Part shown: positions 7,813 to 36,257 of the stretch, in pieces
Layout of the letters: each line of letters starts with the position of its first letter
Position numbering within the stretch: position 1 is the stretch's first letter
Source of the DNA: Dehalococcoidia bacterium
Lineage (GTDB): Bacteria; Chloroflexota; Dehalococcoidia; GIF9; AB-539-J10
NCBI GenBank assembly: GCA_049671165.1
Contig: JBATUN010000023.1
Coordinates: forward strand, 11,722-75,721
Reading direction: 5' to 3'
DNA length: 64,000 nucleotides
Program-made: the position numbers and the translations under genes
The notes under the pieces: model-generated
Database searches by the model: none
What the model was told of the DNA's origin: nothing
Seen by the model: only the letters and a program-made list of their open reading frames with translations

Positions 7813-7818
7813 TATTGA

Positions 7819-8268: not shown

Positions 8269-8310
8269 GACATCTGCATTCAATCATATTTCCTCCCTGT
8301 CAGAGGTGAG

Positions 8311-10329: not shown

Positions 10330-10419
10330 ACAATGCCGCAGACATCACTGCTATAATAGTCACAACAGATGAAGCCCTCGTAGAGATCAGACCTTGAACA
10401 AAAGAAGAGGTGATAGACA

Positions 10420-13336: not shown

Positions 13337-13548
13337 GGTAACACAAGGTAGCTGTACATGGGGCCGCTGATGACGAAAGAATGAATAGTCTCGGTAAAAC
13401 CATCGGTCACTACCTGGAAGAGTTAGAACCTGAGTGACTGGATGAACTCAGAGCGATGAGAATTAAGCCTGCGCGTAGGGAGAAAACCATAACTGACGAA
13501 ATCGAGCATAAGACGCTGTAGGGCAGAGGATCGAAGAGGGAACTCGCT

Positions 13549-19557: not shown

Positions 19558-20541
19558 TCATAGCTCCCAGCTCAGCAAGGGATGGGTCTGCCCGTCAACG
19601 ATGTTCCAGGTGTAGGCAGTGTTGCGTGTGCCAGGGCCGGCAACTGCGATTATGTCCCAGCCTGCAGCTGAGAAGGTGGCGATGCTCTTCATTTCGATGG
19701 TGGTCTTGACTGTCCCGCCATCTGAAGTAGCTTGTCCGCTGGTTTGAATATCCCAGAAGGAGTTGCTCACAGTGCCCTTGTTGTAACCCACCAGACCGCC
19801 AACCTGCGAGGACCCAGTCACCCTACCAACGGAGTAGGAGTTCGTTACGCTGCCATAATAATTGATTCCCACCAGACCGCCGACACGTGTAGAGCCAGTC
19901 ACGCCGCCGGTGGAATAAGAGTTGCTCACAGTGCCCCTGTAATACCAGTTGTCCCCCGTGAGACCGCCGACACGCGTCGAGCCCGTCACGCTGCAGTTGG
20001 AATAGGAGTTGCTCAGAGTAGCCTGATTCCATCCCACCAGACCGCCGACGCGCGAATCGCCAGTCACGCTGCCGCTGGAATACGAGTTGTTCACAATGCC
20101 TGCATTATGTCCCACGAGAGTACCAACCTCCGCGGAGGCACTCACCTCGGCGTTGACCAACCCGACATTCTCGACGACCCCGACATTGTCGATGTAACGT
20201 ATCCAAGAAATATGAGCAAAAAGCCCCACATAATCTTCGTCAGGGCGGTTCATGAATAAGTCTCTTATCTCATATCCCTGACCGTTGAACCTCCCGGTAA
20301 ACCCGTCATCAGGTGTCCCGATTGGCTCCCAGCCCCTTCCCCCATTGGCTGTCAAGCTCGCCAACTCCGTATAGCCGGCACTAGCAGAATCGAGGTCGTT
20401 CATCAGAATGTAACTGCCACGTAAGTCATTTCTGATGGCATGCAAATCATACCAATCCCGTATTTCAATAGGACCAGGAGCACAGCCTATCATCCCGCCG
20501 ATTAAGGCTACCACAATCAAGAAGACGCCAATTGTTTTCAC
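19558..20541 (-). CDS. Secreted or anchored GLUG-motif repeat protein
   Basis: N-terminal signal or TM helix. At least six repeats of 'NSYS.G.VTG..RVGGLVG.N.G' (GLUG motif). Confidence 0.75.
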   Translation of the reverse strand: MKTIGVFLIVVALIGGMIGCAPGPIEIRDWYDLHAIRNDLRGSYILMNDLDSASAGYTELASLTANGGRGWEPIGTPDDGFTGRFNGQGYEIRDLFMNRPDEDYVGLFAHISWIRYIDNVGVVENVGLVNAEVSASAEVGTLVGHNAGIVNNSYSSGSVTGDSRVGGLVGWNQATLSNSYSNCSVTGSTRVGGLTGDNWYYRGTVSNSYSTGGVTGSTRVGGLVGINYYGSVTNSYSVGRVTGSSQVGGLVGYNKGTVSNSFWDIQTSGQATSDGGTVKTTIEMKSIATFSAAGWDIIAVAGPGTRNTAYTWNIVDGQTHPLLSWEL

Positions 20542-21068
20542 GTATATGCCCTTCGTAGTCTTATTGTATCACTCCCGAACAAAGTCTCAATAGTCCCCTG
20601 TGTGGCTAAGTGACGATCCAAGTTAATGTGCCACAAGATGGGCTTCTGTCAATTACAGACAACATGTACCTACGCAGTGGGATTCAGAACACGCCCGGCA
20701 AACAGAATGGTACCAGTCTCAGTGTCGCGAACCAGGAAAATGAAGGGGTGGTCCACGGGGACTTGCGCTCTACAGTAGTCGCCGTCTCAGCACCTCCTTT
20801 CGCCTGCGCTGCGAACCCCGAACGGCAATACATCGAGGATCACAGTCCGCCCAATCCGCTGCAGTTGCCAACCTGAGTGTAGCCCCGAAACAAAAACGCT
20901 GTCGATTGCCCGCAAACAAATATCCCGGAATCTTGCTATAGACATTCGTAGTGTGGCCACTATACCGTTCTTTCAGAACCCAGCGTCACTAGTGTATCTG
21001 AACTAGCCCAAAATGGTCATTGACACTTCCTTCGGCGCTGCTACAATGACACTTCAAAGGGGATACAC

Positions 21069-23051
21069 GTGAAGAGAATCAGCAGTTTCTTGATTGTGGC
21101 AGCGCTAGTTGCAGGGATGGTAGGCTGTGTTTCCTCTCCTACTCAGTATGACCTCACCATTCTTACTCAGTACAACCTCACCATATCCGGCACCGAAGGT
21201 GGAGAAATAACAAACCTTGGAGAGGGTACTTTTACTTGTGACGAAGGTGAGGTGGTCAGTCTGGTGGCGACCCCAGCTCTTGGCTATCAATTTGTCAACT
21301 GGACTGGCGATGTGAACACCATTGAGAATATCGAGGCTGCCTCGACCACCATCACCATGAACGGAGACTATTCAATCGCTGCCAACTTCGAGGCGATTCT
21401 GGCAGACCAGTACAGTCTGATCGTCTCCAGTACTGCTGGAGGTTCGGTAACCCTACCGGGCGAAGGAACATTCGCCTGCAACACCGGCACGATGGCTAAC
21501 CTCGTTGCGACCCCAGACGCTGGCCACCGGTTTGTCAACTGGACTGGTGACGTGGACACCATTGACAATGTCGAGGCGGCTTCGACCACCATCACGATGA
21601 ACGAAGACCGTTCAATCACTGCCAACTTTGAGCAGATGCCTCCGGGGCAATTCGACCTCACCACCTCCAGCACCACCGGTGGCTTGGTCACACTACCTGG
21701 CGAGGGGACTTTCGCATATGACCCTGGCACTGTGGTTAGCCTGGTGGCCACCCCAGCTACCGGCTACCAATTTGTCAACTGGACTGGCGATGTGGACACA
21801 ATGGACAATGTCGAGGCTGCCTCGCCCACCATCACCATGAGCGGGAACTGCTCCATAACGGCCAATTTCGAGCCGATTGCGATGGTCCGGTACAACCTGA
21901 CTATCACCGTTACGGGCGGAGGGTGGGTAATTAGCCCTGGCAAGGGGACTTTCCCCTACGATGCTGGCACCGTAGTCAGCCTACTGGCGACGCCGGGTAC
22001 CGGCTACGAGTTTGTCGGGTGGACTGGCGATGTGACCACCATTGCCGATGTCAATGCTGCCTCAACCACTATCACCATGAACGGAGACTACTCCATAACG
22101 GCTAACTTCGAGGCGATTCCGGCCGGTCAGTACAGCCTGACCACGTCCAGCACCCCCGGAGGTTCGGTCACTACGCCGGGTGAAGGTACGTTTACGCACG
22201 ACGCTGGCATGGTAGTCAGCCTGGTGGCTACCCCGGCTACTGGCTACGAGTTTGTCAACTGGACTGGGGATGTGGGCACCATTGCAAATACTGATGCTGC
22301 CTCAACCACCATCACCATGGGTGGAGACTACTCCATAGCGGCTAACTTCGAGGCGATTCCGGCCGGTCGATACAGCCTCACCACGTCCAGTACCGCCGGA
22401 GGCTCGGTCACTACGCCGGGTGAAAGTACGTTTACGCACGACGCTGGCACGGTAGTCAGCCTGGTGGCGACCCCGGCTACCGGTTATGAGTTTGTCGGGT
22501 GGACTGGGGATGTGGGCACCATTGCCAATGTGAACGCTGCCTCAACCACCATCACCATGAGCGGCAGCTACTCGATACGTGCTGACTTTTTGGAGGACTC
22601 ACCAAGCCCTCCTGGAATAGACTATACCGAGGCCCAAGCCGAGGGACTCATAATTGTACTGGTTAATGCCGAAAGACAGCAGGTCGGCCTACCTGCTCTT
22701 AGCGAGGACCCTCTTTTGACCAGTCTGGCCAGGGAGCACAGTATCAGCATGGTTGTGAACAACTTCTTCAGCCATGACAGATATCCAGGGGAAAGGCCTT
22801 TCAGCTATGGCCAGCTCCCCGGAACTATACGCGGAGAGAATATAGCCATGATACCTACCAGGCAGTATATTCCGGGTCCCTATCTTTCTCTGCAAGAAGT
22901 ATGTGCGTGGGCAGTCTCGCTCTGGATGGGTAGTTCTGGACACAGAGCAAACATACTAGAATCCCGCTACACCAGGACGGGTGTGGGAGTTGCATTCTCA
23001 GAGGGGGGAGAATACCTGTATATAACCCAGATGTTTGAGGGTTACTACTAG
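21069..23051 (+). CDS. Surface protein with a signal peptide, nine InlB B-repeat (Listeria-Bacteroides repeat) domains and a C-terminal CAP/SCP (PR-1-like) domain
   Basis: Nine ~80-aa units, each with 'GY(Q/E)FV(N/G)WTGDV'. C-terminal 'LVNAERQQVGLPAL...GHRANILESRYTRTGVGVA...YITQMF' resembles CAP. Confidence 0.85.
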   Translation: MKRISSFLIVAALVAGMVGCVSSPTQYDLTILTQYNLTISGTEGGEITNLGEGTFTCDEGEVVSLVATPALGYQFVNWTGDVNTIENIEAASTTITMNGDYSIAANFEAILADQYSLIVSSTAGGSVTLPGEGTFACNTGTMANLVATPDAGHRFVNWTGDVDTIDNVEAASTTITMNEDRSITANFEQMPPGQFDLTTSSTTGGLVTLPGEGTFAYDPGTVVSLVATPATGYQFVNWTGDVDTMDNVEAASPTITMSGNCSITANFEPIAMVRYNLTITVTGGGWVISPGKGTFPYDAGTVVSLLATPGTGYEFVGWTGDVTTIADVNAASTTITMNGDYSITANFEAIPAGQYSLTTSSTPGGSVTTPGEGTFTHDAGMVVSLVATPATGYEFVNWTGDVGTIANTDAASTTITMGGDYSIAANFEAIPAGRYSLTTSSTAGGSVTTPGESTFTHDAGTVVSLVATPATGYEFVGWTGDVGTIANVNAASTTITMSGSYSIRADFLEDSPSPPGIDYTEAQAEGLIIVLVNAERQQVGLPALSEDPLLTSLAREHSISMVVNNFFSHDRYPGERPFSYGQLPGTIRGENIAMIPTRQYIPGPYLSLQEVCAWAVSLWMGSSGHRANILESRYTRTGVGVAFSEGGEYLYITQMFEGYY

Positions 23052-23275
23052 GAAGAGGCAGTAACGGGAAATGAAGGCTTACTTACGGGTCCTTGTAGCA
23101 ACAATGACAATCTGATAACGGTAGTGGCAAAATATCAAATAAGAGTGAGGCTGGATACGAAGCTTACTCGGCGTGGCGGCAATCTTGCGAGTGAACCGTT
23201 TGGTGCAGAGGCCTAATATGGGTGCCAGTTTTTGGAGAGACTATTGCTCCAAACATGACATAGTTTCCTAATGTA

Positions 23276-24166
23276 TTAGCTGGCAAGTCCCGCCGCTTTC
23301 AGGATACTGGGAACCACCTCTTCCCGGCCTATGGCCATGACATGGACTCCGTCGCACATGGATTCCCTCTTTATAGTGGCAATCATCCGACCCGCGATTT
23401 CAATACCTTTATTGATTGCCTCACCTTTGGGGGCGCTGGCTAATTCATCAATCAAATTCTGAGGCACAAAGACGCCCGGGACATTTTCAGTCATGTACTT
23501 CGCCATCTTGGCTGACACAAGCAGAATGATGCCGGCCAGTATCTTGACCGGAAACTGGCGGGCATACTCCATAAACTTGGCAAATTTATCCAGGTCATAG
23601 ATGGCCTGAGTCTGAAAGAATTCGGCACCGGCTTCAATCTTCTTTTCGAACTTGATTAGCTGGGGCTCGAGCGGATTTGCTTCAGGTGTGACGATGGCCC
23701 CGGCACAGAACTCTACAGTCCCATCGAGATCATTTCCTCCCAGGTCTTTGCCCGCTTCCATCTGCCGGATTGTCTTAAGCAACTGTGCTGAGTCCAGGTC
23801 GAAAACACCCTTGGCTGCCTTGTGGTCACCGACTACCACAGCATCTCCAGTTAGACAGAGGACATTTCTTATGCCTCTGGTGTATGCGAAAAGGAGCTCG
23901 GCTTGAAGGGCAAGGCGATTACGGTCGCGGCAGGTCACCTGTAATATAGGCTCGCCGCCTTGCTCCTTGATGGCCAGACAACCACCAATGGAGGGAAATC
24001 GCATTACGGAACTCTGGTGGTCAGTGACATTCAGCGCGTCTACTTTATCTTTGATAAGGTCGATATGGTGCAGCATCTTCTCAATATTTGTCCCCTTTGG
24101 TGGACCGATTTCGCTGGTTATCACAAATTTATCAGATTTAAGAACTTCTCTAAAGCTTGGTGCCAT
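23276..24166 (-). CDS. metF: Methylenetetrahydrofolate reductase (MetF family)
   Basis: 'FVITSEIGPPKG...NVTDHQSS...LTGD' and overall MTHFR TIM-barrel pattern. Confidence 0.8.
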   Translation of the reverse strand: MAPSFREVLKSDKFVITSEIGPPKGTNIEKMLHHIDLIKDKVDALNVTDHQSSVMRFPSIGGCLAIKEQGGEPILQVTCRDRNRLALQAELLFAYTRGIRNVLCLTGDAVVVGDHKAAKGVFDLDSAQLLKTIRQMEAGKDLGGNDLDGTVEFCAGAIVTPEANPLEPQLIKFEKKIEAGAEFFQTQAIYDLDKFAKFMEYARQFPVKILAGIILLVSAKMAKYMTENVPGVFVPQNLIDELASAPKGEAINKGIEIAGRMIATIKRESMCDGVHVMAIGREEVVPSILKAAGLAS

Positions 24167-24176
24167 AGCTCCTCCT

Positions 24177-24821
24177 TCATGTGATCTTAGCCGTTCGCGG
24201 CCTGGGTGCTACGTTGTAATCTCTGGGAGAGTGAAATCTACGCATCAAATCAAGCCGGCCCTGTTGCTCTAGGCGCTGGTATATAAGAGTCCAGGCACAA
24301 TCCTTTTCCTTATCCACCTCGCATTTGCCATTATTGGTGCCGCCACAAGGGCCATTCAACAAACCTTTGTGACAAGCCGTGAGTGGACAGATGCCCGCAG
24401 TCTCTCCCAGGACGCATTGACCACACTGGGCACATACCTCCTGAAAACACCCTGGATTATCCTCGACGCCTATGAAAAGTGTATCCAGAGCTGGTATGGC
24501 TGGCTTGTCAATATAGGTACTCAGCTTATGCACTCCCAAAGCACAGGCCATGACCAGAATGCAGCTGGCATTCTGAATGGGTCCATTATTTTCTTTGATA
24601 GCTACCTCCGTCATCTCATCACAGGCAGTAGGTATAACTATCCAGCCGGTGACTAGCTTGCCCAGTTCCTGTAGACGCTCCTTCATCGCCAGGACCTCGT
24701 CCCTGCCACCGGTTTTAGTCATTGTGGCGCACGTGCCACAACCGGCAATATATACCCGGTCAAATCCATCTAACTGCTGCTCAATTTCCTCAGAAGACTT
24801 CTGTTTAGTAATAGATTTCAT
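24177..24821 (-). CDS. MetV-like Cys-rich protein (methylene-THF reductase C-terminal-domain protein / zinc-finger partner of MetF)
   Basis: Multiple CxxC and CxxxC clusters. Adjacent to metF with a 10-nt gap. Confidence 0.65.
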   Translation of the reverse strand: MKSITKQKSSEEIEQQLDGFDRVYIAGCGTCATMTKTGGRDEVLAMKERLQELGKLVTGWIVIPTACDEMTEVAIKENNGPIQNASCILVMACALGVHKLSTYIDKPAIPALDTLFIGVEDNPGCFQEVCAQCGQCVLGETAGICPLTACHKGLLNGPCGGTNNGKCEVDKEKDCAWTLIYQRLEQQGRLDLMRRFHSPRDYNVAPRPRTAKIT

Positions 24822-24966
24822 GCCTAACCTCCATAAACAAAAAAGTCAAAGGTTAAGAATCAAAATGACAAATCAAAAATAGAACCTCTAAATACCTTTC
24901 TTTGCGTTCTTACTTTTTTATTTACTGTTGCTCTGTCATTTTGCATTTTTATTTTTGCTTCTTACA

Positions 24967-27900
24967 TTACTTTTCCAGGTCGCATCTTAAGCAACGCTTA
25001 GCCTCTTGTCTCGCTTTTTCCTCAGAGAAGCTCAATTCTATCTCTTTAAAGCTACCTTTCCTCTCCTGGAGAGGAAGATGAGGTATTTCTGGTCTGAATT
25101 GTGGTTCCCAGCTTTCCTCTTCCTCTCTGCTTATTTCTTCCTCAATAACGCTGGGCTTAAGGTCGTATATCTCGACCCGTGAGGTGTCGCCCCGGAGATA
25201 CTTGTCTATAGAGATGGCCCCTCTCCGGCCAGCCGCAATAGCCTCTATGACCATGCCTGGCCCGGAGACAAAATCCCCACCGGCAAAGACCCCGGGAACA
25301 TTAGTAGCTAATTTGTTTTCATTCACAGCCAGCCTTTCCCATCGAGTACGCTCAAGAGCACTATCCGGAGGTAAAAACGACAGGTCTGGAGCTTGCCCCA
25401 CAGCGGCAATGACGCTATCTGCTGGAGCAAAAAACTCTGAGCCGGAAACAGGAATTGGGCGACGACGCCCGCTGGAGTCGGGCTCGCCCAGCTTCATTTG
25501 GACGCACTGTAAACCGGTCACTTTCCAGTTGTTGCTTACTATGCGGGTGGGACTGACGAGGAAATTAACCTGGATGCCCTCGGCCACAGCCTCGTCGTAC
25601 TCGACTTCGGTTACTGGCATCTCCTCTCGTGACCGACGGTAAAAGATATTCACCTCATCGGCACCGAGGCGAAGAGCTGTTCGAGAGGAGTCCAAGGCTA
25701 CATTACCACCTCCAATGACAGCCACTCTGCCTCCAATCTTGACAGGCTTGCCAATCTTTGCATCCCTGAGAAATCTCAGACCATAGTAGAAACCTTCGAT
25801 GTCCTCCAATTCTCCGGGTATGCCAATGTTCTGGCTCCTTTGTGCTCCCGCAGCGATGAAGATGGCTTCAAAGCCACTGTTTCTGATATCTTCTATGGTG
25901 AAATTTACGTTGATTGGTGTGTTGTATTTTATTTCCACTCCGCGCTTCGCGATATAATCGATTTCCTTTTCGATAACGTCCCGCGGCAAGCGAAAGTCGG
26001 GTATAGCTACCGAGAGCATGCCGCCGCCTAGTGGGAGGGCTTCAAAGAGGGTGACAGGATAGCCCATTTGAGCCAGGAAGTAGGCGCAGGACAATCCTGT
26101 AGGGCCTGCTCCTACTACTGCTACTTTTTGGCTGTGAGTCTGGGGGAAGGGTTCTGGTGGAGGTAACTCCGCGACGTGGTCAAAATACCAGTCGGCAGCA
26201 AAGCGTTTGAGCGCCCTGATAGCTACAGGGTCGTCGAGTTCCCCGCGGCGACATCTTCCCTCGCAAGGGTGGTGACAGATGCGGCCGCAAATAGCAGGGA
26301 AGGGATTGCGCTCCCTGATGGTGTTGACAGCCTCCAGGTACTCACCATCGGCAATTTGAGCTACATATTTGGGAATATTAATTCCCACCGGGCAGGTATG
26401 CTGACATGGTGATATCATGAGGGCATCGCACACGGCGGCAGCGCATTTCTTTTCCCTTATGTGCGTTTCATATTCATCTCTGAAGTACTCGAGGGTGGTA
26501 AGCACAGGGTTGGGACAAGTCTGTCCCAGACCGCAGAGCGAACATTCCTTGACCGTTTTGGCTATGGTAAGCAGAGTATCCATATCCTGTTCATGCCCTT
26601 TGCCCTGAGTGATTCCGGTCAGTATTTCCAGTAGTTGTTTGGTTCCCAAGCGGCAAGGTACGCATTTCCCGCAGGACTCAGCCTGAGTAAAACTTAAAAA
26701 ATACCTGGCCACATCCACCATACAGGTGGTCTCGTCCAGTACCACCATGCCGCCGGAGCCCATAATTGAGCCTAATTTAGCCAATGTTTCATATTCCACG
26801 GGGGAGTCGAGGAATCGAGCAGGGATGCAGCCACCTGAAGGGCCACCCGTTTGCACCGCTTTAAATTGCTTGCCCCGCGGAATACCACCCCCGATATCAA
26901 AGATGATGGTGGATAAGGGAGTGCCCATAGGCACCTCCACCAATCCACTGTTGGCAATTTTCCCTGTGAGGGCAAAGACAGCCGTTCCTTTGCTCTTCTC
27001 CGTACCTATATTGGCAAACCAATCAGCACCTCGGTCAATGATAATGGGAATGGAAGCCAGACTTTTTACATTGTTAATAGTAGTTGGCATTCCTTCCAGG
27101 CCTGATTGGGCGGGAAATGGGGGGCGGGGACGAGGCATGCCCCGTCGGCTCTCGATGGAAGCCATTAGAGCTGTTTCCTCACCACAGACAAAGGCCCCGG
27201 CGCCCTCTTTGACATGCACCGTAAAACCGAAGCCAGAGCCGAGAATATCTTTGCCCAAAAAACCCCTTGCCTGGGCTTGCTCTAAGGCAGTGTGAACTCG
27301 CTTTACTGCCAACGGATACTCAGCACGGACATAGATATAACCCTCGTTGGCACCGATAGCATATCCGGCAATGGTCAGCCCTTCAATAACAGCGTGGGGA
27401 TCTGCTTCCAGTATGGAGCGGTCCATAAAAGCACCGGGATCGCCTTCATCGGCATTGCAGATTACGTATTTCTTTGCTCCGTGAGCGCTGCGGCAAAATT
27501 CCCACTTGCGACCGGTGGGAAAACCAGCGCCACCCCGCCCTCTAAGCCCAGAGTTCTTGACCTCAGTAATGACTTGCTCTGGTGTCATCTCAAGGAAAGC
27601 CTTTTTCAGCGCCTGGTAACCTCCACGAGCGATATAATGCTCGATTTTTTCCGGGTTGATTTGCCCGCAGTTGCGCAGAATGAGACGCTGCTGTTTTTTG
27701 TAGAAGTTTATTTCTGAATAGTGCGGTATTGCTTTGCCTGTTACCGGGTCGTGGTAGAAAAGGCGTTGCACAGGCTTGCCGTCTCGAAGATGAGAGGTGA
27801 CAATTTCCAGGGCATCCTCGGCCTGGACGTGGGTATAGAGAATACCCTCGGGTTCAATAACTACATTAGGGCCCTGCTCGCAGAATCCGTGACAACCAGT

Positions 27901-28029
27901 GAAATCCACCTCGGCATCGCTTATCCCTTGCTGGCTTATTTCTTCCTTGAGCGCCTCGTAGACAGCATCGGAGCCGCTGGAAAGGCATCCTGTTCCCTGG
28001 CAAACAAAAACAGTATGATGGTTTTGCAT
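24967..28029 (-). CDS. NuoF-like NAD(P)H-binding FMN / Fe-S flavoprotein fused to two 4Fe-4S ferredoxin domains and a GltD-like FAD/NAD(P) oxidoreductase (HylB/SfrB-like electron-input subunit)
   Basis: N-terminal thioredoxin-like 2Fe-2S, 'GRGGAGFPTGRKWEF' (FMN site), 'ESCGKCVPCR' (4Fe-4S), two CxxCxxCxxxCP clusters, 'VAVVGAGPTGLSCAYFL' and a 'VIGGGNVA' Rossmann motif. Confidence 0.9.
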   Translation of the reverse strand: MQNHHTVFVCQGTGCLSSGSDAVYEALKEEISQQGISDAEVDFTGCHGFCEQGPNVVIEPEGILYTHVQAEDALEIVTSHLRDGKPVQRLFYHDPVTGKAIPHYSEINFYKKQQRLILRNCGQINPEKIEHYIARGGYQALKKAFLEMTPEQVITEVKNSGLRGRGGAGFPTGRKWEFCRSAHGAKKYVICNADEGDPGAFMDRSILEADPHAVIEGLTIAGYAIGANEGYIYVRAEYPLAVKRVHTALEQAQARGFLGKDILGSGFGFTVHVKEGAGAFVCGEETALMASIESRRGMPRPRPPFPAQSGLEGMPTTINNVKSLASIPIIIDRGADWFANIGTEKSKGTAVFALTGKIANSGLVEVPMGTPLSTIIFDIGGGIPRGKQFKAVQTGGPSGGCIPARFLDSPVEYETLAKLGSIMGSGGMVVLDETTCMVDVARYFLSFTQAESCGKCVPCRLGTKQLLEILTGITQGKGHEQDMDTLLTIAKTVKECSLCGLGQTCPNPVLTTLEYFRDEYETHIREKKCAAAVCDALMISPCQHTCPVGINIPKYVAQIADGEYLEAVNTIRERNPFPAICGRICHHPCEGRCRRGELDDPVAIRALKRFAADWYFDHVAELPPPEPFPQTHSQKVAVVGAGPTGLSCAYFLAQMGYPVTLFEALPLGGGMLSVAIPDFRLPRDVIEKEIDYIAKRGVEIKYNTPINVNFTIEDIRNSGFEAIFIAAGAQRSQNIGIPGELEDIEGFYYGLRFLRDAKIGKPVKIGGRVAVIGGGNVALDSSRTALRLGADEVNIFYRRSREEMPVTEVEYDEAVAEGIQVNFLVSPTRIVSNNWKVTGLQCVQMKLGEPDSSGRRRPIPVSGSEFFAPADSVIAAVGQAPDLSFLPPDSALERTRWERLAVNENKLATNVPGVFAGGDFVSGPGMVIEAIAAGRRGAISIDKYLRGDTSRVEIYDLKPSVIEEEISREEEESWEPQFRPEIPHLPLQERKGSFKEIELSFSEEKARQEAKRCLRCDLEK

Positions 28030-28030
28030 A

Positions 28031-28519
28031 CTACTCTCTACCCTCCCGATTTCTGAACAGCTGCTCTACTTTCTTCGGGTTCATATGACCATGGACGTGG
28101 TCACCAACGACCATATTAGGGGCCAGGGCACAAACGCCGATGCAAGCTACAGTCTCCAGGGTGTATTCCAAATCGGGGCTGGTTTCTCCCTCTTCTATAT
28201 CCAGCTGCTGTTTAACCAATTTCAGGATCGTCTTCCCTCCCCGCACATGGCAGGCTGTCCCCCGGCAAACCCTAACAACTTTTCTGCCCCGTGGCTGAGT
28301 GTAGAGCTGAGTATAAAAACTTATCACCCCTTGCACCTGACTGGGGAAAAGCCCCAGGCCTCTAGCTATGAGTGGCATAGACTGAGGAGGAATATACCCG
28401 AGCTCACTCTGGATTTTCTGCAGTAGCGGTATTAGTGCCCACCTCTGCTGACTGTATTCGGAAACAATTGAGTTCATCCGTGCCAGGTCAGCCTTCGTGA
28501 TTGTCTTCGCTTTATTCAT
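28031..28519 (-). CDS. NuoE-like thioredoxin-fold [2Fe-2S] ferredoxin subunit
   Basis: 'VCRGTACHVRGG' and 'VACIGVCALAPNMVV'. Confidence 0.85.
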   Translation of the reverse strand: MNKAKTITKADLARMNSIVSEYSQQRWALIPLLQKIQSELGYIPPQSMPLIARGLGLFPSQVQGVISFYTQLYTQPRGRKVVRVCRGTACHVRGGKTILKLVKQQLDIEEGETSPDLEYTLETVACIGVCALAPNMVVGDHVHGHMNPKKVEQLFRNREGRE

Positions 28520-28599
28520 GAAGCTCCACCCTTTCTATTCTCATATTAAGTAGCCTGGGAGCTTGTCCTCCATCCTTTTGCCGACGACAAGCCTTGGTA

Positions 28600-31275
28600 T
28601 TACAACCTCTCTATTTTCACTCTGCATGATTTCAATGAAGGCGCTTTTGTTTCCGGGTCTAAAACAATGTCGAATAGCTCGCTAACCGGAGTCTCCGGGA
28701 ACGAAAATGGCATAAACAGCATCCCCTTACGCAATGTATCCCTAATCTTCACCATTGTAATCACCTCGCCCACAGCTGAGATTACCTTCACATCTTCACC
28801 ATCATTGATGACAAGGTTTCTGGCGTCAGATTCACAAATCTCCACAAAAGACCGGGCGGAAAACCTCCTCAGGCGCCAAGCCCTTGAACTCCTGTTACCA
28901 GTGCCAAAGTGATAAAGGGTAGTCCCGGTGAGCAAGGTAAAGGGATAATCTGGTTTTCTCTTCCCTGCTTGTGGAATATATTCGATGGAGGAAAAACGGG
29001 CGAATCCCTTTAGGAGTTGCCTACCATAGGTGTGTCCTGTTTCCCCGTATGCTAACTCATCCTGTCTTTCGGAATCAGGATAGGCTTCGTATGAAGGAAC
29101 TAATTCCTCAATCTCACTCGTAACATCCTGCAAGGAGGAGAATGGGAATGGATAACCCATCTTATGAGCTAGGCGCATGACTATTTCCCAGTCTGGCAGG
29201 CTTTCACCAATAGGCTCGATGGCTTTGCGTACCCTATTTACCTTGCCCTCAAAATTAGTGAAAGTCCCCTCCTTTTCGGCAAAGCTTGCCGCTGGCAGAA
29301 CTGCATTGGCCAGTTTGGCCGTTTCCGTAAGGAACATATCTTGGACTACCAGGAAATCGAGAGAAGTCACGATCTCTGAAATGAGTCTCGGATTTGGAAA
29401 GCTCAAGACAGGATTTTCTCCTACAATATACATGCCTTTAATTTTCTCTCTTTTTGTCTGTTGCATAATCTCCAGGGCTGTTAATCCAGTCTCGGCCGGC
29501 AGGCTTACTCCCCAACATTTTTCGAACTTCCCCCTGGCCTCAGCATCGGCAACACTCTGATATCCCGGGAGGAATTTGGGCAATGTTCCCATGTCACAGG
29601 CGCCTTGTCCGTTGTTCTCTCTTTGTAGGGCATAGATGCCACCTCCCTTGCGCCCAATGTTTCCCGTCAGTAGTGCCAAATTTGCCAGGGCCCCCACACC
29701 ATTTGTTCCTGTGGTATGCTGTGTAATTCCTGTGCCATAGACAATTGCTGCCCGGCTTGCCCGAGCATAAAGTCGAGCGGCGGCACGAATTTCTTGATCT
29801 GTAACGCCAGTGATCTTCTCAACGTACTCTGGGGTATACTTTTTCAAGCTTTCGTTGAAGGCTTCAAAGTTGTCTGTTCTTCTGGTGACAAACTCCTCGT
29901 CCAGCAAACCTTCATCAATAATCACCTTGGCCAGGCCATTTATGAGAGCCACGTCAGTGCCGACTTCAGGTCGTAACCAAAGTTGGGCAAACAAAGAGAG
30001 CCTTGTCTGCCGAGGGTCTATCAACAATAATTTGACACCGCGCTGTTTAACAGCGCGCTTGATGGCATAACCGACGACAGGGGCTGAGGAATCGGGATCA
30101 GCCCCGATGACCAGTATAAGATCGGTCTGCTCCAAGTCACTAAGATAACTTGTAGTGCCGGAGAAGCCAAGGGAAGATCCCAGGGCGACACGACTGGCAG
30201 AGTTGTACAAGCGACTGCCATTATCAATATTGTTGGTGCCGAGCACGGTCCTGGCGAATCTCTGCAGGACATAGTTATCTTCGTTGGTGCACTTGGATGA
30301 CCCTAGAACGGCTAGGCTGCCGGAACCTCGCTCGTCCTTTACTCGCTTGAGTCCAGTAGCTACTTGCTCCAGGGCTTCTTCCCATGACACCTCCTCAAAA
30401 GCGTTGTCCCTCTTGACCAATGGCTTGGTTAGCCTGTCCGGGCTGTGAACGAAATCACAGCCGTAGCTTCCCCTTACACAAAGCGCGCCGTGATTTACTG
30501 AGTCCTCCTTACCGGGTACGACTCGCACGACTTGATTATCCTTAACTTCCAAGCAGATGCTGCACCCGCAGCCACAAAAAGGACAAGTCGTTTCCGTCGT
30601 AGCCTTAGTCGTGCCGCCATACATCCTATCCTTTTCCATTAATGCGCCTGTAGGGCACAGCGCCACGCAGGTTCCGCAAAAAGTACACTCAGAGTCTTCC
30701 AGGGGCAAATTGTCCAGTGTCGCCGGTATGGTCGTAAATCCCCGTCGAAAGTAGTCGATGGCACCTTCAACGACTAGTTCCTGGCAGGCTCGAATGCATT
30801 TGGCGCACAGTATGCACTTGCTCAAATCCCGTTCAAGGAAGGGATTGACCTCCTCAATGCTGGCTATCTGGGGAATCCGCTGCAACTCCACCAATCCGAT
30901 GCCCAGGCCTGAGGCAATTTGGCGTAGCTGGCAGCGATTGCCTTTATCGCATACCAGGCAGGAATCGGGATGGCTGGTAAGCATCAGCTCAACTACGGTC
31001 TTACGGCGCTCTATTACTCGCGGGGAATGCGTGTTGATCACCATTCCCAATGCTATCGGTGTAACGCAAGACGCGAGCAAGGCTCCGTTTTGTTCGTTCT
31101 CTACCAGACAGACGCGGCAAGCACCGGTCGGAGACAAGTGGTTATCGTGACAGAGTGTAGGAATTTCTACGCCTGATTCTTTCGCCAGTTCCAGGATGGT
31201 CATCCCTGGGTAGCCACTTACCTCACGACCGTCAAGAGTAATGGTTATCGCCTGCAAACCAATGTCCTCCTTCAT
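28600..31275 (-). CDS. Formate dehydrogenase alpha / NuoG-like molybdopterin oxidoreductase with N-terminal 2Fe-2S and 4Fe-4S domains. The start was moved to the internal ATG before 'MKEDIGLQAITITLDGRE'
   Basis: 2Fe-2S ferredoxin-like N-terminus, CxxCxxCxxxCP clusters, 'CPFCGCGCSI' and molybdopterin-binding domains. There is no in-frame TGA, so it is not a selenoprotein. Confidence 0.85.
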   Translation of the reverse strand: MKEDIGLQAITITLDGREVSGYPGMTILELAKESGVEIPTLCHDNHLSPTGACRVCLVENEQNGALLASCVTPIALGMVINTHSPRVIERRKTVVELMLTSHPDSCLVCDKGNRCQLRQIASGLGIGLVELQRIPQIASIEEVNPFLERDLSKCILCAKCIRACQELVVEGAIDYFRRGFTTIPATLDNLPLEDSECTFCGTCVALCPTGALMEKDRMYGGTTKATTETTCPFCGCGCSICLEVKDNQVVRVVPGKEDSVNHGALCVRGSYGCDFVHSPDRLTKPLVKRDNAFEEVSWEEALEQVATGLKRVKDERGSGSLAVLGSSKCTNEDNYVLQRFARTVLGTNNIDNGSRLYNSASRVALGSSLGFSGTTSYLSDLEQTDLILVIGADPDSSAPVVGYAIKRAVKQRGVKLLLIDPRQTRLSLFAQLWLRPEVGTDVALINGLAKVIIDEGLLDEEFVTRRTDNFEAFNESLKKYTPEYVEKITGVTDQEIRAAARLYARASRAAIVYGTGITQHTTGTNGVGALANLALLTGNIGRKGGGIYALQRENNGQGACDMGTLPKFLPGYQSVADAEARGKFEKCWGVSLPAETGLTALEIMQQTKREKIKGMYIVGENPVLSFPNPRLISEIVTSLDFLVVQDMFLTETAKLANAVLPAASFAEKEGTFTNFEGKVNRVRKAIEPIGESLPDWEIVMRLAHKMGYPFPFSSLQDVTSEIEELVPSYEAYPDSERQDELAYGETGHTYGRQLLKGFARFSSIEYIPQAGKRKPDYPFTLLTGTTLYHFGTGNRSSRAWRLRRFSARSFVEICESDARNLVINDGEDVKVISAVGEVITMVKIRDTLRKGMLFMPFSFPETPVSELFDIVLDPETKAPSLKSCRVKIERL

Positions 31276-31309
31276 AACCCCGCAGGTGGGCGTAAGGCAT
31301 CCCGCAGGG

Positions 31310-32140
31310 TTACTTATTCTTCTCTTGGCCCTCTGGCCAGTTGGCAGACACGTAGGCAAAAGACCGAGGGAAATACCTTCCTTCACCTACTGTCCTTATA
31401 CCAGTCAAAAGGTCAGAACTGGCAGCGCTTTTGGCAATGAAGCCGCAAGCTCCTACCTGCTTAGCAACAAACATGTTCTCCTCTTCGTCATATTGGGTTA
31501 GAATCAGAACCTTTGTCTGTGGATATTCCTCAGTTATTCGTTTCGTTGCTTCAAGTCCGCTCATCACCGGCATAACTATATCCATCACCGCTACATCCGG
31601 TGTGAGACGCTGCACTTTGTCAATGGCATCTTGCCCGTCAACGGCTTCACCTATTACTTCCATGTCTTTTTGGAGACTCAACAGGGCACAAATTCCTTCC
31701 CTGACTACAGAATGGTCATCTACCACCAGCACCTTGATTCTTCTCAGCGTCTTATCCAGGAATTTCTCAGCCCAGGCCACCAGTGAAGCTGACTCGACTG
31801 GCTTGATCAAATATTGTTCGGCTTCAAGCTTCAGGCCTTCATCCATACGCCACCCCTTAATCAGACGCTTCTCTGATGAGGCATCAACCACAATGAGGGG
31901 CACTTCTCTGAAATTGGGGCTCTGTTTCAACCACTGATGCAGCAAGAAGGCATCTCCACGTGGCATTATTGTGCCCAATATGATCAGGTCGGGTTTTTCG
32001 TGAATCGCTACCTTCTCTGCCTCTGATCTGTTGCCGGCAGTGAGCACCTGCCAACCTTTTGCCAGTAATTTGGTTTGCGTGTCCGCAATGAATTCCGACT
32101 CGTCATCCACCAGCAGAATTTTAGCCTTCGTTTCCATCAT
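31310..32140 (-). CDS. Response regulator with two tandem receiver domains and no output domain
   Basis: 'ILLVDDE...D(L)IILG' and 'VLVVDDHSVVREG...DVAVMDIVMP'. Confidence 0.8.
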   Translation of the reverse strand: MMETKAKILLVDDESEFIADTQTKLLAKGWQVLTAGNRSEAEKVAIHEKPDLIILGTIMPRGDAFLLHQWLKQSPNFREVPLIVVDASSEKRLIKGWRMDEGLKLEAEQYLIKPVESASLVAWAEKFLDKTLRRIKVLVVDDHSVVREGICALLSLQKDMEVIGEAVDGQDAIDKVQRLTPDVAVMDIVMPVMSGLEATKRITEEYPQTKVLILTQYDEEENMFVAKQVGACGFIAKSAASSDLLTGIRTVGEGRYFPRSFAYVSANWPEGQEKNK

Positions 32141-32358
32141 TCACCCCCTTAACAAATACACATTCTTTAGAGTTATTTCAGTCTCCTCCTATAAAGTGTA
32201 ATGAGTGGCGTGCCGAAGGAATAGAGGTGTTCACCCCAGAAGATAAGGAAATACCACCGCAATTTTCTACGTTTGATCGCTCATTTATATGGACAATGCT
32301 CCCCATTAGTGGGGTATAGGAAACAAGGGGGTGTCGTGAAGACTTCAGGGCAATAATC

Positions 32359-33012
32359 TCAGACGGTGATAATGCCCTTGCGCAGGGCATATTTGAACAG
32401 GTCAAGGCGGTTGTGAATATCCAACTTTGCCATCAGGTTGGTCTTGTGTCTTTCTACAGTTTTGGGACTAAGGACCAGCATTCGGGCTATCTCAAGAGTA
32501 GAGTGCCCTTCTACTAGCAGTTTTAGTATTTCTCTCTCTCGGGCGGTCAGATGTTCGAAGGTATCCCTGTTCTTTCCTACTCTGGCTAGCTGTCGATAGT
32601 CATCGACTAAGAGTCTGGCTATGGATGGAGATAGGAAAGAATCCCCGCGGTACACAGACCGAATAGCTGAGGTGAGCTCTGAGGATGCGGATGCTTTACT
32701 GATGAAACCATTGGCCCCAGCTTCAATAACGGGTAATACATATTCCCTATCTTCGTACTGGGTCAATACTATCACTTTTGTCCCCGGGAACTTCTTACGT
32801 ATTCGGCGAGTCGCTTCCAGTCCATCCATAAGAGGCATGATTATGTCCATAAGCACTATGTCAGGCGAGAGCTTGGTAACCATTTCCAGCGCTTCTCTGC
32901 CATTGGTGGCCACGCCTATTGCTTCTATGTCCCCGGTAAGAGCAAGTAAAGCACAGATACCATCACGCACGATGGCATGGTCGTCAGTTACCAGTACTCT
33001 TATCTTCGCCAT
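32359..33012 (-). CDS. NarL/FixJ-family response regulator (REC plus LuxR-type HTH)
   Basis: 'IRVLVTDDHAIVRDG', 'DIVLMDIIMP' and C-terminal 'LTAREREILKLLVEGHSTLEIARML'. Confidence 0.9.
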   Translation of the reverse strand: MAKIRVLVTDDHAIVRDGICALLALTGDIEAIGVATNGREALEMVTKLSPDIVLMDIIMPLMDGLEATRRIRKKFPGTKVIVLTQYEDREYVLPVIEAGANGFISKASASSELTSAIRSVYRGDSFLSPSIARLLVDDYRQLARVGKNRDTFEHLTAREREILKLLVEGHSTLEIARMLVLSPKTVERHKTNLMAKLDIHNRLDLFKYALRKGIITV

Positions 33013-34288
33013 ATCTAATGTCTTGACTCATTGGAATCTTGGCCCAAACTGTAGTTCCTGCTGCAATCCTGGACTCGACGCCGCTGGTCCCGCCGAGGAA
33101 GCCAATCCTTTCTCTCATACTGAATAATCCACGGCCTCGCCCACTCTCCTCTACATCGGTGAGTTTGGAGACATCAAATCCCTGCCCGTCATCTCTAACA
33201 ATTAGTGAAAACTCATGTGGTTGATACCCCAGCACTATGGAAGCATTCTTTGCTTTGGAATGCTTGACAATATTGCCGATGGCTCCCTGAATAACGCGAA
33301 AAAGAGCAGCCTCTACGTCCGGAGGAAATCGCATCTCAGTCCCATTGACCTCCACTGTTACGTTAATATTTAAGGGCTGAAGGCTATTCTTGACATGCTG
33401 GCGAACAGCAGCGACTAACCCCAGCGTATCCAATACGGTAGGGTGGAGATTGGAAATCACCCTGCTTACCTCCTTATGTACATGCACCGTCAGAGATTGA
33501 ACTTTCTTCAGACCAGCAATGAATTGAGGATCTTGGTTACCGGATTGCGCGGATATTTCGATCAGCGCTTCTAGTTGAAGTGCTATCCCAGAGAGCGATT
33601 GACTAGTCTCATCGTGTAGTTCACGGGCAATCCTCCTTCGTTCTTCTTCCTCTGCGACAAGATTCTGTCGTGCAAGTTTGCGTAATCTTTCCCGTGCTTT
33701 TCTCAGCCGCTCGTTCAGTATTGCCTGCTCGATGGCTGTGCCAAGTTGGTCCCCAATCGAGTGCAAAAGATGCACGTCTTCTTTGGTGAAGCGATGTGGC
33801 ACATAGCTAGCAACATTCATTACTCCCAGAACATTATCTTTGGCTCGGAGGGGGACGCTGATGAATGCTCTCAAACCCTCTGAACTTATCAGGTCAACGC
33901 GAGCGGCATCTGGTTCTGAGGAAATGTCCTCCAGCAGCACTGCCCTGCCGCTTTGAGCTACCTTTCCTGCGATTCCTTCACCAAGTTTAAGACGCATCTC
34001 TTCAGTATACTTATCAGACAGACCGTGATAAACACGGTAGGACAGCGTCTGATTTGTTTCATCCAGGAGCATTATTCCTCCCACGGTTCCGTTCATGATG
34101 CTAAGCACATTATCGAGGCCAATCCCGAGAATAGCATCCAACTCATGCAGCCCGCTTATTGCCGCAGAGACTCGACTCAAAGCCACAAGGTCATGATAAT
34201 GTTTCTCAGCCGTGCCGCCCTGATCAGATAGAATCAAATCAGCACTAGCTGGACCGGCAGCTTTCTCAACTCCATCACCGTTGTTCAT
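32984..34288 (-). CDS. Cytoplasmic sensor histidine kinase (GAF + HisKA_3 + HATPase_c)
   Basis: GAF-like N-terminus, H-box 'RELHDETSQSLSGI' and ATPase 'DDGQGFD...GRGLFSMRERIGFLGG'. Overlaps the regulator gene by 29 nt. Confidence 0.9.
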   Translation of the reverse strand: MNNGDGVEKAAGPASADLILSDQGGTAEKHYHDLVALSRVSAAISGLHELDAILGIGLDNVLSIMNGTVGGIMLLDETNQTLSYRVYHGLSDKYTEEMRLKLGEGIAGKVAQSGRAVLLEDISSEPDAARVDLISSEGLRAFISVPLRAKDNVLGVMNVASYVPHRFTKEDVHLLHSIGDQLGTAIEQAILNERLRKARERLRKLARQNLVAEEEERRRIARELHDETSQSLSGIALQLEALIEISAQSGNQDPQFIAGLKKVQSLTVHVHKEVSRVISNLHPTVLDTLGLVAAVRQHVKNSLQPLNINVTVEVNGTEMRFPPDVEAALFRVIQGAIGNIVKHSKAKNASIVLGYQPHEFSLIVRDDGQGFDVSKLTDVEESGRGRGLFSMRERIGFLGGTSGVESRIAAGTTVWAKIPMSQDIRYGEDKSTGN

Positions 34289-34559
34289 TGTCCTTACTTC
34301 GCCAAAGCAGCGTTACATTTAAGCCTATACAAAATCGTGACCTTTTGCAACCTCTTGTGTTTGCTGCAATGCCACTGGTGGCAGAGTGATTCATTAATGA
34401 CATACAGGGTGGCGAGCCACAATAGGAAATGGGCTATTACTTGATGAAAGTGAAGATTTGGTTGCGAACTTGTCCTCGGCAAAACCAGCGGACTTTATGG
34501 AGGTAAATGAGTGGGGTAGGGTATCGTTTTGTCCTTTTGGAGTGTTGCCTATTGCTTAT

Positions 34560-34650
<91 letters not shown>

Positions 34651-34651
34651 G

Positions 34652-34739
34652 CGGAGAGGGTGGGATTCGAACCCACGCTCCGATATAATCGGAGACCGCT
34701 TTTCGAGAGCGGCACCATAAACCACTCGGTCACCTCTCC
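34652..34739 (-). tRNA. tRNA-Ser (anticodon CGA), type II, directly abutting the previous tRNA
   Basis: Acceptor GGAGAGG/CCTCTCC, anticodon stem CCGCT/AGCGG with loop CTCGAAA, long variable arm and T-arm GTGGG-TTCGAAT-CCCAC. Confidence 0.85.
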
Positions 34740-34804
34740 TGAAGCTAATTATGAGGGTCGTAACTTTACATAAACCAATTTTGCCAATAATGCTTTTCAA
34801 CAGC

Positions 34805-35946: not shown

Positions 35947-36013
35947 TTTATGCCTCCTTCAGTGGTTAAGATTTGTCAATACGCTAGGGATCATCACGTG
36001 ATGGAGCTGCATT

Positions 36014-36220
36014 ATGAAAGAGGAGAATCTAATAATGACGGTTAAGGAAGCCGCGGCTGTCTTTAATAGCAGTAGGGGCCTGGCTTATCAGGCTGCTCGA
36101 GACGGCAGCATCCCCACGATTCGGATCGGTAGACGTCTGTTTGTCCCCCGCAGGGCTCTCGAGAAGCTCCTCGAAGCACCGATTTCCTCCGATATCAGAG
36201 AACCGGGTAAGCAGTCATAA
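36014..36220 (+). CDS. Excisionase-family HTH DNA-binding protein
   Basis: 'MTVKEAAAVFNSSRGLAYQAARDGSIPTIRIGRRLFVPRRALEKLL' is a typical Xis/MerR-like HTH. Confidence 0.55.
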   Translation: MKEENLIMTVKEAAAVFNSSRGLAYQAARDGSIPTIRIGRRLFVPRRALEKLLEAPISSDIREPGKQS

Positions 36221-36257
36221 CGCGAGCACTTCCAGAGTGACGCGGAGAAATCGAGGC

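Follow-up and report, generated by a model that had tools for sequence, protein, structure and literature searches.

Which cofactor donates electrons to methylene-tetrahydrofolate (methylene-THF) reductase, and how that step is coupled to energy conservation, is a long-standing gap in the bioenergetics of the Wood–Ljungdahl pathway: in vitro the type II MetFV enzyme spends reduced ferredoxin in a way that 'wastes' it, and for type IV the second acceptor has yet to be identified (PMC8760232). A row of five genes in a 64,000-nucleotide (nt) stretch of DNA from a Dehalococcoidia bacterium (the window) raises the question again, as metV and metF stand there directly behind genes for a formate dehydrogenase (FDH)-like alpha subunit, a NuoE-like subunit and a fusion of NuoF to GltD. 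The operon is a member of a gene arrangement that has been noted in print and never characterised. It probably encodes one soluble, five-subunit methylene-THF reductase (MTHFR) of the 'X type' (NuoEFG homologs plus MetFV), linked to NADH or NADPH (reduced nicotinamide adenine dinucleotide and its phosphate; together NAD(P)H), and its alpha subunit is best read as a NuoG/BfuA-like pseudo-FDH, an iron–sulfur (Fe–S) scaffold and not a formate dehydrogenase. This reading draws on gene content, domain and cofactor motifs, the loss of catalytic residues and conserved synteny, from which we infer the single complex, its electron path and its direction in vivo. The five genes are as follows.

23276–24166, minus strand: MetF, 296 amino acids, the catalytic flavoprotein subunit of methylene-THF reductase (PF02219 over its full length, 142 bits).
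24177–24821, minus strand: MetV, 214 amino acids, the iron–sulfur/zinc subunit of MetFV-type methylene-THF reductase (PF12225, 122 bits).
24967–28029, minus strand: NuoF–GltD fusion, 1020 amino acids (PF01257 (partial), PF01512, PF10589, PF14691 and PF07992).
28031–28519, minus strand: NuoE/HydC/BfuC-like [2Fe-2S] subunit, 162 amino acids (PF01257, 160 bits).
28600–31275, minus strand: FdsA-type FDH-like alpha subunit, 891 amino acids (PF13510, PF10588, Fer4, PF04879, PF00384 and PF01568).

The first-pass annotation of the window had described five minus-strand genes in a row as a compact unit, and this was confirmed: the five open reading frames (ORFs) are uninterrupted between 23276 and 31275, and the row is conserved across phyla. 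The spacing is tight, with intergenic gaps of 80, 1, 145 and 10 nt from alpha to MetF, and the ATG at 31275 is the alpha start codon, matching homologs of 891 amino acids. MetV carries the motif NGPCGG at residue 156 and 14 cysteines, so that the core features of a MetFV-type MTHFR (metV upstream of metF, PF02219 and PF12225, and NGPCGG) are all present. A sequence search of Protein Data Bank (PDB) chains gave no match, and hence no solved structure, for MetV, and distant MTHFR matches only for MetF. None of the genes hdrA, hdrB, hdrC and mvhD, by which a type IV MTHFR is recognised, adjoins metVF. The absence of HdrABC–MvhD remarked on at first pass extends from the operon to the other ORFs scanned in the window: no Hdr, MvhD, other Wood–Ljungdahl, fdhD or molybdenum (Mo)-cofactor gene was found with Pfam among the roughly 36 ORFs scanned, which cover most of the 64 kb. 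Rfam at gathering thresholds detected no riboswitch or other RNA in the 145-nt gap between NuoF and MetV or upstream of the operon, the only hits being two serine transfer RNA (tRNA-Ser) genes elsewhere, and a promoter and terminator scan of positions 22900–34600 returned counts equal to the shuffle expectation and was uninformative.

The alpha subunit is homologous to FDH alpha subunits over its full length. It scores 706 bits against TIGR01591 (Fdh-alpha; cutoff 666), and its best PDB matches are FdsA chains (9wxb_B, 596 bits; R. capsulatus 6tg9_A, 592 bits), aligned over residues 9–887. Three regions of the gene bear on its function.

30601–31275, minus strand: N-terminal NuoG/HoxU-like Fe–S region, residues 1–225, with its Cys/His ligand positions.
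30202–30207, minus strand: codons TAC AAC of Tyr357–Asn358 (Tyr357, 30205–30207), at the position of the Mo-ligand Cys or selenocysteine (Sec) and the adjacent His.
29617–29625, minus strand: codons of Gln551–Arg552–Glu553, which replace Arg-Gly-Gln of the FDH motif LRGQNNVQG, including the catalytic Arg587 of R. capsulatus FdsA.

The active site is missing from this protein. In a phmmer alignment to 6tg9_A, free of gaps around both active-site motifs, the Mo ligand Cys386 of FdsA falls on Tyr357, His387 on Asn358 and Arg587 on Gln551 (the roles of the three FdsA residues are described in PMC7171172); 'CARVCHSPT' of FdsA is aligned to 'GSRLYNSAS' and 'PLRGQNNVQG' to 'ALQRENNGQG'. MAFFT alignments of 150 cluster representatives and of 80 loci agree on Tyr357, Asn358 and Gln551. 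The local sequence at the Mo-ligand region, NGSRLYNSASRVALG, was confirmed. It had been suspected by eye to lack the ligand Cys, and the alignment check set beforehand bore this out: no standard Cys ligand was found, the position being occupied by Tyr357. The protein is not a selenoprotein either, as had been noted, since the uninterrupted ORF leaves no in-frame TGA.

The loss extends beyond the three catalytic residues and is confined to one part of the protein. Among the 150 nearest clusters at 50% identity, 43 representatives have intact Cys-His-Arg, and all 43 carry the usual motifs around these residues, motifs that are missing from alpha. In this intact set 94 columns are at least 90% conserved, of which alpha keeps 75: all 16 in the N-terminal Fe–S region and 59 of the 78 in the Mo domains. 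The 19 changed columns thus all lie in the Mo domain, and the changes there include Cys353Gly, Gly552Arg, Gln553Glu and Val556Gly as well as Lys268Arg, His398Ala, Arg677Gly, Arg785Thr, His858Ser and Asn865Ser, the last six at positions otherwise invariant in FDHs. The remaining 107 of the 150 representatives lack intact Cys-His-Arg in the predicted protein; some could be Sec enzymes whose predicted sequence stops short at UGA. Among 120 close homologs (more than 81% identity; metagenome-assembled genomes (MAGs) of Chloroflexi/Dehalococcoidia) Tyr predominates at the ligand position and 9 have Cys, a variation unlike that of an essential metal ligand. The pterin cofactor has likely been lost as well.

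The Fe–S clusters tell the opposite story. All ligands are present: Cys42/53/56/70 for a [2Fe-2S] cluster, His102/Cys106/109/115 for a [4Fe-4S] cluster, Cys154/157/160/164 and Cys197/200/203/207 for two ferredoxin-type [4Fe-4S] clusters, and the invariant Cys231/234/238/266 for the [4Fe-4S] cluster beside the former active site. Nearly all are invariant across an alignment spanning 44–86% identity. At Cys164 (approximately 30784–30786) the family consensus has Asp ('CIRAD'), and some relatives may have an Asp-ligated [4Fe-4S] cluster. FDH-like domains reduced to this role are familiar from NuoG/Nqo3 of complex I, in which such a domain, devoid of cofactor, carries only Fe–S clusters. A second precedent is Csac NfnA, whose cofactor-less FDH-like domain is a mere Fe–S carrier (PMC11829005).

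The same combination of a degenerate alpha subunit and MetFV recurs across genomes. The alpha-family alignment was scanned against one genome per GTDB species, yielding 80 loci that were taken with 10-kb flanks; the window proteins were mapped onto these by tblastn and the active-site columns were then read, with taxon labels as given in the MAG records. About 26 loci, drawn from five phyla or more, have the order alpha–NuoE–NuoF(–GltD)–MetV–MetF, with alpha identities of 38–85%. Its carriers comprise many Dehalococcoidia (all of them MAGs in current databases), Bacillota/Clostridia (L019, L027), Actinomycetota (L020), UBA9088 (L025), Nitrospirota (L035, L036), Deltaproteobacteria/Syntrophales (L037, L067, L071, L072) and a MAG labelled Pseudomonadota (L078). 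The adjacency of NuoF and MetV is kept in every complete locus, across phyla, and the genes downstream of MetF are unrelated between loci (six distant loci compared), which places the end of the unit at MetF.

None of the approximately 26 MetFV-linked loci has the complete catalytic set. Tyr, Ser, Asp, Asn or Pro stands in the place of the ligand, and Cys once, in L020, where His and Arg are missing. The intact FDHs of the scan are mostly Sec enzymes with CARL-U-H and PLRGQNNVQG motifs, and mostly stand in the order NuoE–NuoF–alpha or a similar one. Where at least 6 kb of downstream sequence was available, an alpha subunit without the catalytic set was followed by MetV and MetF in 20 of 21 loci and an intact alpha subunit in 0 of 27 (Fisher p = 1e-12, for loci that are not phylogenetically independent); in the sole exception, L030, the sequence gives way to a stretch of N where scaffolds were joined. 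In a neighbour-joining tree, which carries no bootstrap support, one split sets all the intact FDHs apart from the rest. Conservation within the MetFV-linked alpha subunits is 62% in the Fe–S region, 48% in Mo domains I–III and 40% in the cap domain, as against 49%, 57% and 52%, respectively, in true FDHs, so that constraint is shifted from the Mo domains to the Fe–S region.

Next to alpha lie NuoE and the fusion, the latter with both nucleotide sites. NuoE scores 155 bits against NF005722 (cutoff 141) and has the ligand cysteines Cys85/90/126/130. The fusion consists of two halves.

26425–28029, minus strand: HydB/BfuB-like half, residues 1–535; 790 bits to the bifurcating NiFe-HydB chain 7t2r_B (Acetomicrobium mobile), over residues 7–538.
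24967–26424, minus strand: GltD/NfnA-like half, residues 536–1020, in the place at which BfuB has its B3/B4 ferredoxin-binding C-terminal domain.

Further top PDB matches of the NuoF half are HydB, StnB and NfnB of Bfu enzymes, whereas the non-bifurcating FdsB and Nqo1 reach about 360–410 bits, far below these. This half has an N-terminal [2Fe-2S] site (Cys10/15/46/50) in a thioredoxin-like region, a site for flavin mononucleotide (FMN) and NADH (GRGGAGFPTG at residue 164), and the NuoF [4Fe-4S] ligands Cys453/456/459/499; its SLBB domain lies below the Pfam cutoff (20.8 bits against 27). It also keeps the Bfu-type site as His523/Cys436/Cys529/Cys534, with Thr474 at the Cys476 position, as in most BfuB. 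The corresponding residues of A. mobile HydB, His525 and Cys438/531/536, are reported to occur in nearly all BfuB and to be absent from non-bifurcating homologs (PMC9304861), and in later structures the His/Cys site holds a Zn ion (PMC11829005). PF01512, PF10589 and PF01257 in the fusion and NuoE, PF13510 and Fer4 in alpha, and the ligand cysteines also agree with the BfuABC description in PMC9304861 of a BfuB with FMN-binding Nuo51 domain, NuoF [4Fe-4S] and N-terminal [2Fe-2S], a NuoE-type [2Fe-2S] protein as BfuC, and a BfuA with at least one [2Fe-2S] and one 4Fe-4S ferredoxin domain.

The GltD half most closely resembles 9bov_A (417 bits), NfnA 9n5u_A (406 bits) and StnC 8oh5_C (347 bits), all above the NfnSL-type chains 4ylf_B and 5jca_L. 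It has a motif for flavin adenine dinucleotide (FAD), GAGPTG at 640, and NADPH-type motifs, GGGNVA at 773 and YRRS at 797, and its Fer4_20 domain contributes eight cysteines (542, 546, 581, 585, 589, 593, 1013 and 1016), which would suffice for two [4Fe-4S] clusters. The fusion had originally been described as one of NuoF, ferredoxin and GltD; the fusion itself stands, and what had been taken for a separate ferredoxin domain is the Fer4_20 of GltD-type proteins. The B3/B4 2×[4Fe-4S] domain (IPR017896) is absent from the fusion, with no CxxCxxCxxxC after Cys534, where the GltD module begins.

This architecture was compared among the NuoF genes that adjoin MetFV or an intact FDH in the 80 scanned loci. 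The NuoF adjoining MetFV is GltD-fused in 21 loci; in four others (L019, L025, L027 and L035) it has neither GltD nor a ferredoxin-type C-terminal domain, and in L025, L027 and L035 it ends 6–14 amino acids past the His/Cys motif. L035 has, in addition, a GltD-like gene of its own upstream of alpha. Canonical NuoF with B3/B4 occurs at a MetFV-linked locus only in L036, as an extra paralog: in this Nitrospiraceae MAG (6431–11519) two tandem NuoF paralogs, one with B3/B4 and the other GltD-fused, lie inside the MetFV-linked cluster. Beside intact FDHs, 26 NuoF genes carry B3/B4. Four intact Sec-FDH loci of Anaerolineae and deltaproteobacterial MAGs (L048, L050, L052 and L083) are adjoined by NuoE and a NuoF–GltD fusion of the same design, which marks NuoF–GltD as a reusable NADH/NADPH module. 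These four may be NADH/NADPH-linked FDHs without the ferredoxin-binding domain, and the MetFV-linked system may have descended from such an FDH complex.

The operon can thus be set beside the systems already described. Yi et al. (2021) noted in Dethiosulfatarculus sandiegensis that metFV is preceded by genes for NuoEFG homologs; they named this unstudied arrangement, which occurs 'widely in Desulfobacterales and Chloroflexi', the 'X type' and guessed at bifurcation (PMC8515935). The window agrees with that account in having NuoG-like, NuoE and NuoF homologs directly upstream of metV–metF, with no Hdr/MvhD and no RnfC2, and the spread stated there fits the Dehalococcoidia and deltaproteobacterial loci found here; the match is one of gene arrangement and involves no direct sequence comparison with D. 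sandiegensis. What that text publishes is an arrangement and a speculation on bifurcation, and the passages available do not mention the catalytic loss, the GltD fusion or the missing B3/B4. A five-gene cluster of equal composition, 'formate dehydrogenase'–nuoE–nuoF–metVF, was reported by Frank et al. (2016) in the uncultured Firmicute unFirm_1, with all products in the metaproteome; it was read as a real FDH linking CO2 reduction to MTHFR (PMC5080403). It probably corresponds to the Bacillota variants L019, L023 and L027, and the Bacillota relatives in our scan have neither GltD nor the FDH catalytic residues. A literature search for biochemistry or later characterisation of X type found nothing, with thin coverage of subscription journals that leaves absence unproven. 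A survey of Bfu enzymes lists no MTHFR function (Schut et al. 2022, PMC9304861), and the standard MTHFR classification comprises types I–IV only (PMC8760232).

Both fusion halves have their best structural relatives in StnABC (S. ovata, 8oh5) and NfnABC (C. saccharolyticus, 9bov; archaeal, 9n5u). Common to these enzymes and the operon are a NuoE-like subunit, an FMN subunit of HydB type that has the His/Cys site (Zn or 'B2'), a GltD-like module for FAD and NADPH, and an FDH-like domain in which the pterin site is not functional (PMC11829005, PMC7483475). Stn and Nfn differ in that their GltD is inserted in the NuoG-like subunit and their BfuB keeps B3/B4, whereas here GltD sits on the BfuB C terminus in place of B3/B4; alpha is far nearer FdsA (596 bits) than NfnA (295 bits), and MetFV is part of the conserved unit. 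With this changed topology, in the position of GltD and the missing B3/B4, canonical Stn/NfnABC was set aside as an identification and is retained just as a rival, discussed below. FdsABG(D) (R. capsulatus, 6tg9) and type 1 Fdh-Bfu share the domain order of alpha, similarity over its full length and the NuoE/NuoF-like partners, but the window has lost Cys/Sec-His-Arg, has no FdsD and has MetFV attached, while true FDH loci are mostly NuoE–NuoF–alpha.

The MetV–MetF core with metV upstream is common to MTHFR types II (C. ljungdahlii MetFV), III (A. woodii RnfC2–MetVF) and IV (M. thermoacetica HdrABC–MvhD–MetFV), and in type III, as proposed here, an FMN protein of the NuoF/RnfC fold would provide the NADH site absent from MetFV itself (PMC8760232). 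The partners differ: none, RnfC2 and HdrABC–MvhD in those three types, against NuoE, a HydB-like NuoF–GltD and a pseudo-FDH here, with a second (NADPH) nucleotide site. The NADPH-dependent FDH-like enzymes of SfrAB type resemble the operon in pairing a GltD-like with an FDH-like subunit. HylABC–FdhF2 is the bifurcating FDH of Gottschalkia acidurici. The operon is unlike both systems: a single polypeptide, devoid of the catalytic residues, unites its NuoG-like and FDH-like parts, its GltD is fused to NuoF, and MetFV comes next. The comparison with Hyl, Sfr and MetFV–Hdr clusters that had been proposed beforehand therefore yielded no gene-for-gene match with HylABC–FdhF2, and this system and canonical Fdh-Bfu are both ruled out by gene content, gene order and the missing B3/B4.

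In the enzyme proposed for the operon, MetF would reduce methylene-THF, or oxidise methyl-THF in reverse, with MetV relaying electrons to or from it. NADH would react at the FMN site of the HydB/BfuB-derived NuoF–NuoE core and NADPH at the FAD of the NfnA/StnC-like GltD module that has taken the place of the ferredoxin-binding domain. Electrons would pass from NAD(P)H to FMN or FAD, to the NuoF and NuoE clusters, along a five-cluster wire in the dead FDH and on through MetV to MetF, the dead FDH acting as Fe–S wire and scaffold. The GltD-less relatives bear on this assignment: they have one nucleotide site and no catalytic partner except MetFV, which argues that the NuoEFG-like module works with MetFV.

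Whether the enzyme also conserves energy is a separate matter, and a tentative proposal, less likely than not, is that NADH electrons are split between methylene-THF and NADP+ on the Bfu-type FMN/[4Fe-4S]/[2Fe-2S] core. In the reductive mode the high-potential branch would lead through the dead-FDH wire and MetV to methylene-THF, and NADP+ would be reduced via the GltD module; in an oxidative Wood–Ljungdahl pathway NADPH oxidation would drive the otherwise unfavourable oxidation of methyl-THF with formation of NADH, in a Bfu-like confurcation. To judge from standard potentials, such NADH/NADPH/folate coupling is thermodynamically reasonable. The earlier suggestion of an NAD(P)H-coupled, possibly bifurcating module fares accordingly in its two parts: the NADH/FMN and NADPH/FAD sites are present, and the bifurcation is the same speculation as that in PMC8515935. 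The core derives from bifurcating enzymes, with the signature site kept and the ferredoxin domain gone.

Several points weigh against a five-subunit reductase, or against parts of it. Synteny is the evidence from which complex formation is deduced; in S. ovata stnABC comes right after metVF, but the Stn transhydrogenase is purified without MetVF, as an enzyme of its own (PMC7483475), so gene adjacency is no proof of a complex. The pterin domains of alpha score 244 bits (PF00384) and 73 bits (PF01568), compared with 264–278 and 97–110 in true FDHs, and alpha has no large deletions relative to FdsA; with scores just moderately reduced, binding of the pterin cofactor bis-MGD is conceivable. Within the Dehalococcoidia/Bacillota clade Tyr357 and Gln551–Arg552–Glu/Asp553 are conserved, and such a pocket could have a new role rather than none. 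In L034 (7557–10900) an alpha subunit with intact Cys-His and Arg is directly followed by MetV, the contig ending before MetF, and in L044 and L053 Sec-FDHs have MetV/MetF a few kb off or on the opposite strand; it is possible that these three are genuine FDH–MetFV neighbourhoods, counter to the general pattern. Ferredoxin is bound at B3/B4, and T. kivui HydABC no longer bifurcated once this domain had been deleted (PMC11829005), so its absence counts against classical ferredoxin-dependent Bfu bifurcation. Finally, as it also adjoins the intact Sec-FDHs of L048, L050, L052 and L083, NuoF–GltD may be a plain dual NADH/NADPH diaphorase without energy coupling.

The alternative that survives best, itself unlikely, divides the operon into two enzymes: a transhydrogenase like Stn/NfnABC, formed by alpha, NuoE and NuoF–GltD and working on NADH, NADPH and possibly ferredoxin, and an ordinary two-subunit, ferredoxin-dependent MetFV, the two being co-expressed as both serve the methyl branch. 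The nearest relatives of the halves of the fusion, NfnA/StnC for GltD and HydB, StnB and NfnB for NuoF, are what such a division would lead one to expect, the S. ovata genes that adjoin metVF and encode an Stn purified alone (PMC7483475) provide a case of it, and NfnA likewise has a pterin-less FDH-like domain (PMC11829005). However, the B3/B4 domain required for Nfn/Stn-type bifurcation is missing, the NuoEFG-like genes of L019, L025, L027 and L035, with a single nucleotide site, cannot encode transhydrogenases, and the NuoF–MetV adjacency in every complete locus across phyla speaks against it.

It is improbable that alpha instead binds a pterin without a Cys ligand, in the manner of arsenite oxidase, which has no protein ligand, or that its remodelled pocket (Tyr357 and Gln551–Arg552–Glu553) serves another substrate or a regulatory ligand. 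The mildly lowered scores of the Mo domains and the lack of large deletions relative to FdsA fit such a role, as do the invariant cluster ligands Cys231/234/238/266 next to the former active site and the retention of Tyr357 and Gln-Arg-Glu/Asp in the Dehalococcoidia/Bacillota clade; but the pocket residues are not kept in deltaproteobacterial and Nitrospirota members of the same synteny group, the Mo domains are the least conserved part of alpha, and no Mo-cofactor genes were found among the scanned ORFs of the window.

The weakest alternative, a working NAD(P)H-linked FDH in physical contact with MTHFR, by which methylene-THF would be reduced at the expense of formate, has on its side the TIGR01591 score and end-to-end alignment with FdsA, the same interpretation of unFirm_1 (PMC5080403) and the real Sec-FDHs that occur with NuoF–GltD fusions (L048, L050, L052 and L083), yet is very improbable for an alpha subunit in which Cys/Sec, His and Arg are all substituted, other FDH-invariant residues of the Mo domains are changed, close homologs mostly have Tyr in place of the ligand, and the ligand position varies among MetFV-linked relatives in a way incompatible with a conserved metal ligand. 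The identity of a real FDH was rejected on this active-site alignment and on this variation, and the formate-to-methyl-branch electron module of the first-pass annotation is not supported: the Mo-ligand Cys/Sec, His and Arg are gone, and the intact FDHs of the scan, the case of L034 apart, are not followed by MetV–MetF.

A two-component system lies immediately upstream of alpha.

31310–32140, minus strand: double-receiver response regulator (Pfam), ending 34 nt before the alpha start codon.
32359–33012, minus strand: LuxR-type response regulator (Pfam).
32984–34288, minus strand: GAF histidine kinase (Pfam).

Most Dehalococcoidia loci, and likewise Actinomycetota L020, have this trio upstream of alpha, and the same genes occur, rearranged, in Clostridia L027; the two-component system belongs to the conserved locus. 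Two adjacent tRNA-Ser genes (anticodons GGA and CGA) follow at 34560–34739, with fragmented phage-integrase ORFs beside them (34805–35257, 35533–35946 and 36141–36938); the whole (34560–36938) is probably the remnant of a tRNA-integrated element. In the relative L001 the response regulator is instead separated from alpha by three small ORFs and an intact integrase.

Elsewhere in the window, on the plus strand at 16055–17766, a Snf7/ESCRT-III-like protein (PF03357, 29 bits) precedes an AAA ATPase, a pair resembling the ESCRT-III/Vps4 type, after which come two small ORFs without a Pfam match. At 10420–15915 (plus strand) a PP2C phosphatase lies between two Ser/Thr protein kinases, one of which has a large TPR region, and large secreted repeat proteins with InlB B-repeat, RCC1, GLUG and CAP domains lie nearby at 4939–10329 and 19558–23051. 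An AAA_21/AbiEii-like ATPase (42809–44257, plus strand) adjoins a RiboL-PSP-type HEPN protein (44436–45113, minus strand), possibly as a toxin–antitoxin or defence pair, and an IS110-family transposase is encoded at 57231–58505.

To the arrangement noted in print, the present analysis adds that the 'FDH' appears to be catalytically dead in all MetFV-linked relatives examined, that NuoF is Bfu-derived with its ferredoxin domain swapped or lost, and that a two-component system is part of the conserved locus. Public sources name the alpha homolog 'formate dehydrogenase alpha subunit'; as alpha lacks the catalytic residues, metabolic reconstructions that count it as an FDH, for formate use or for CO2 reduction, are probably wrong. 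The operon would represent a fifth, widespread type of MTHFR, found in Dehalococcoidia, Desulfobacterota-like lineages, Nitrospirota, Actinomycetota and Bacillota, groups to which many organisms of sediments and the subsurface belong; in these, the direction in which the pathway runs and its energetics are debated. The proposed energy coupling, if true, would make it the first bifurcating enzyme whose three substrates are a folate and two pyridine nucleotides, and would explain the methyl-THF step in Dehalococcoidia, Desulfobacterales and syntrophic acetate oxidisers.

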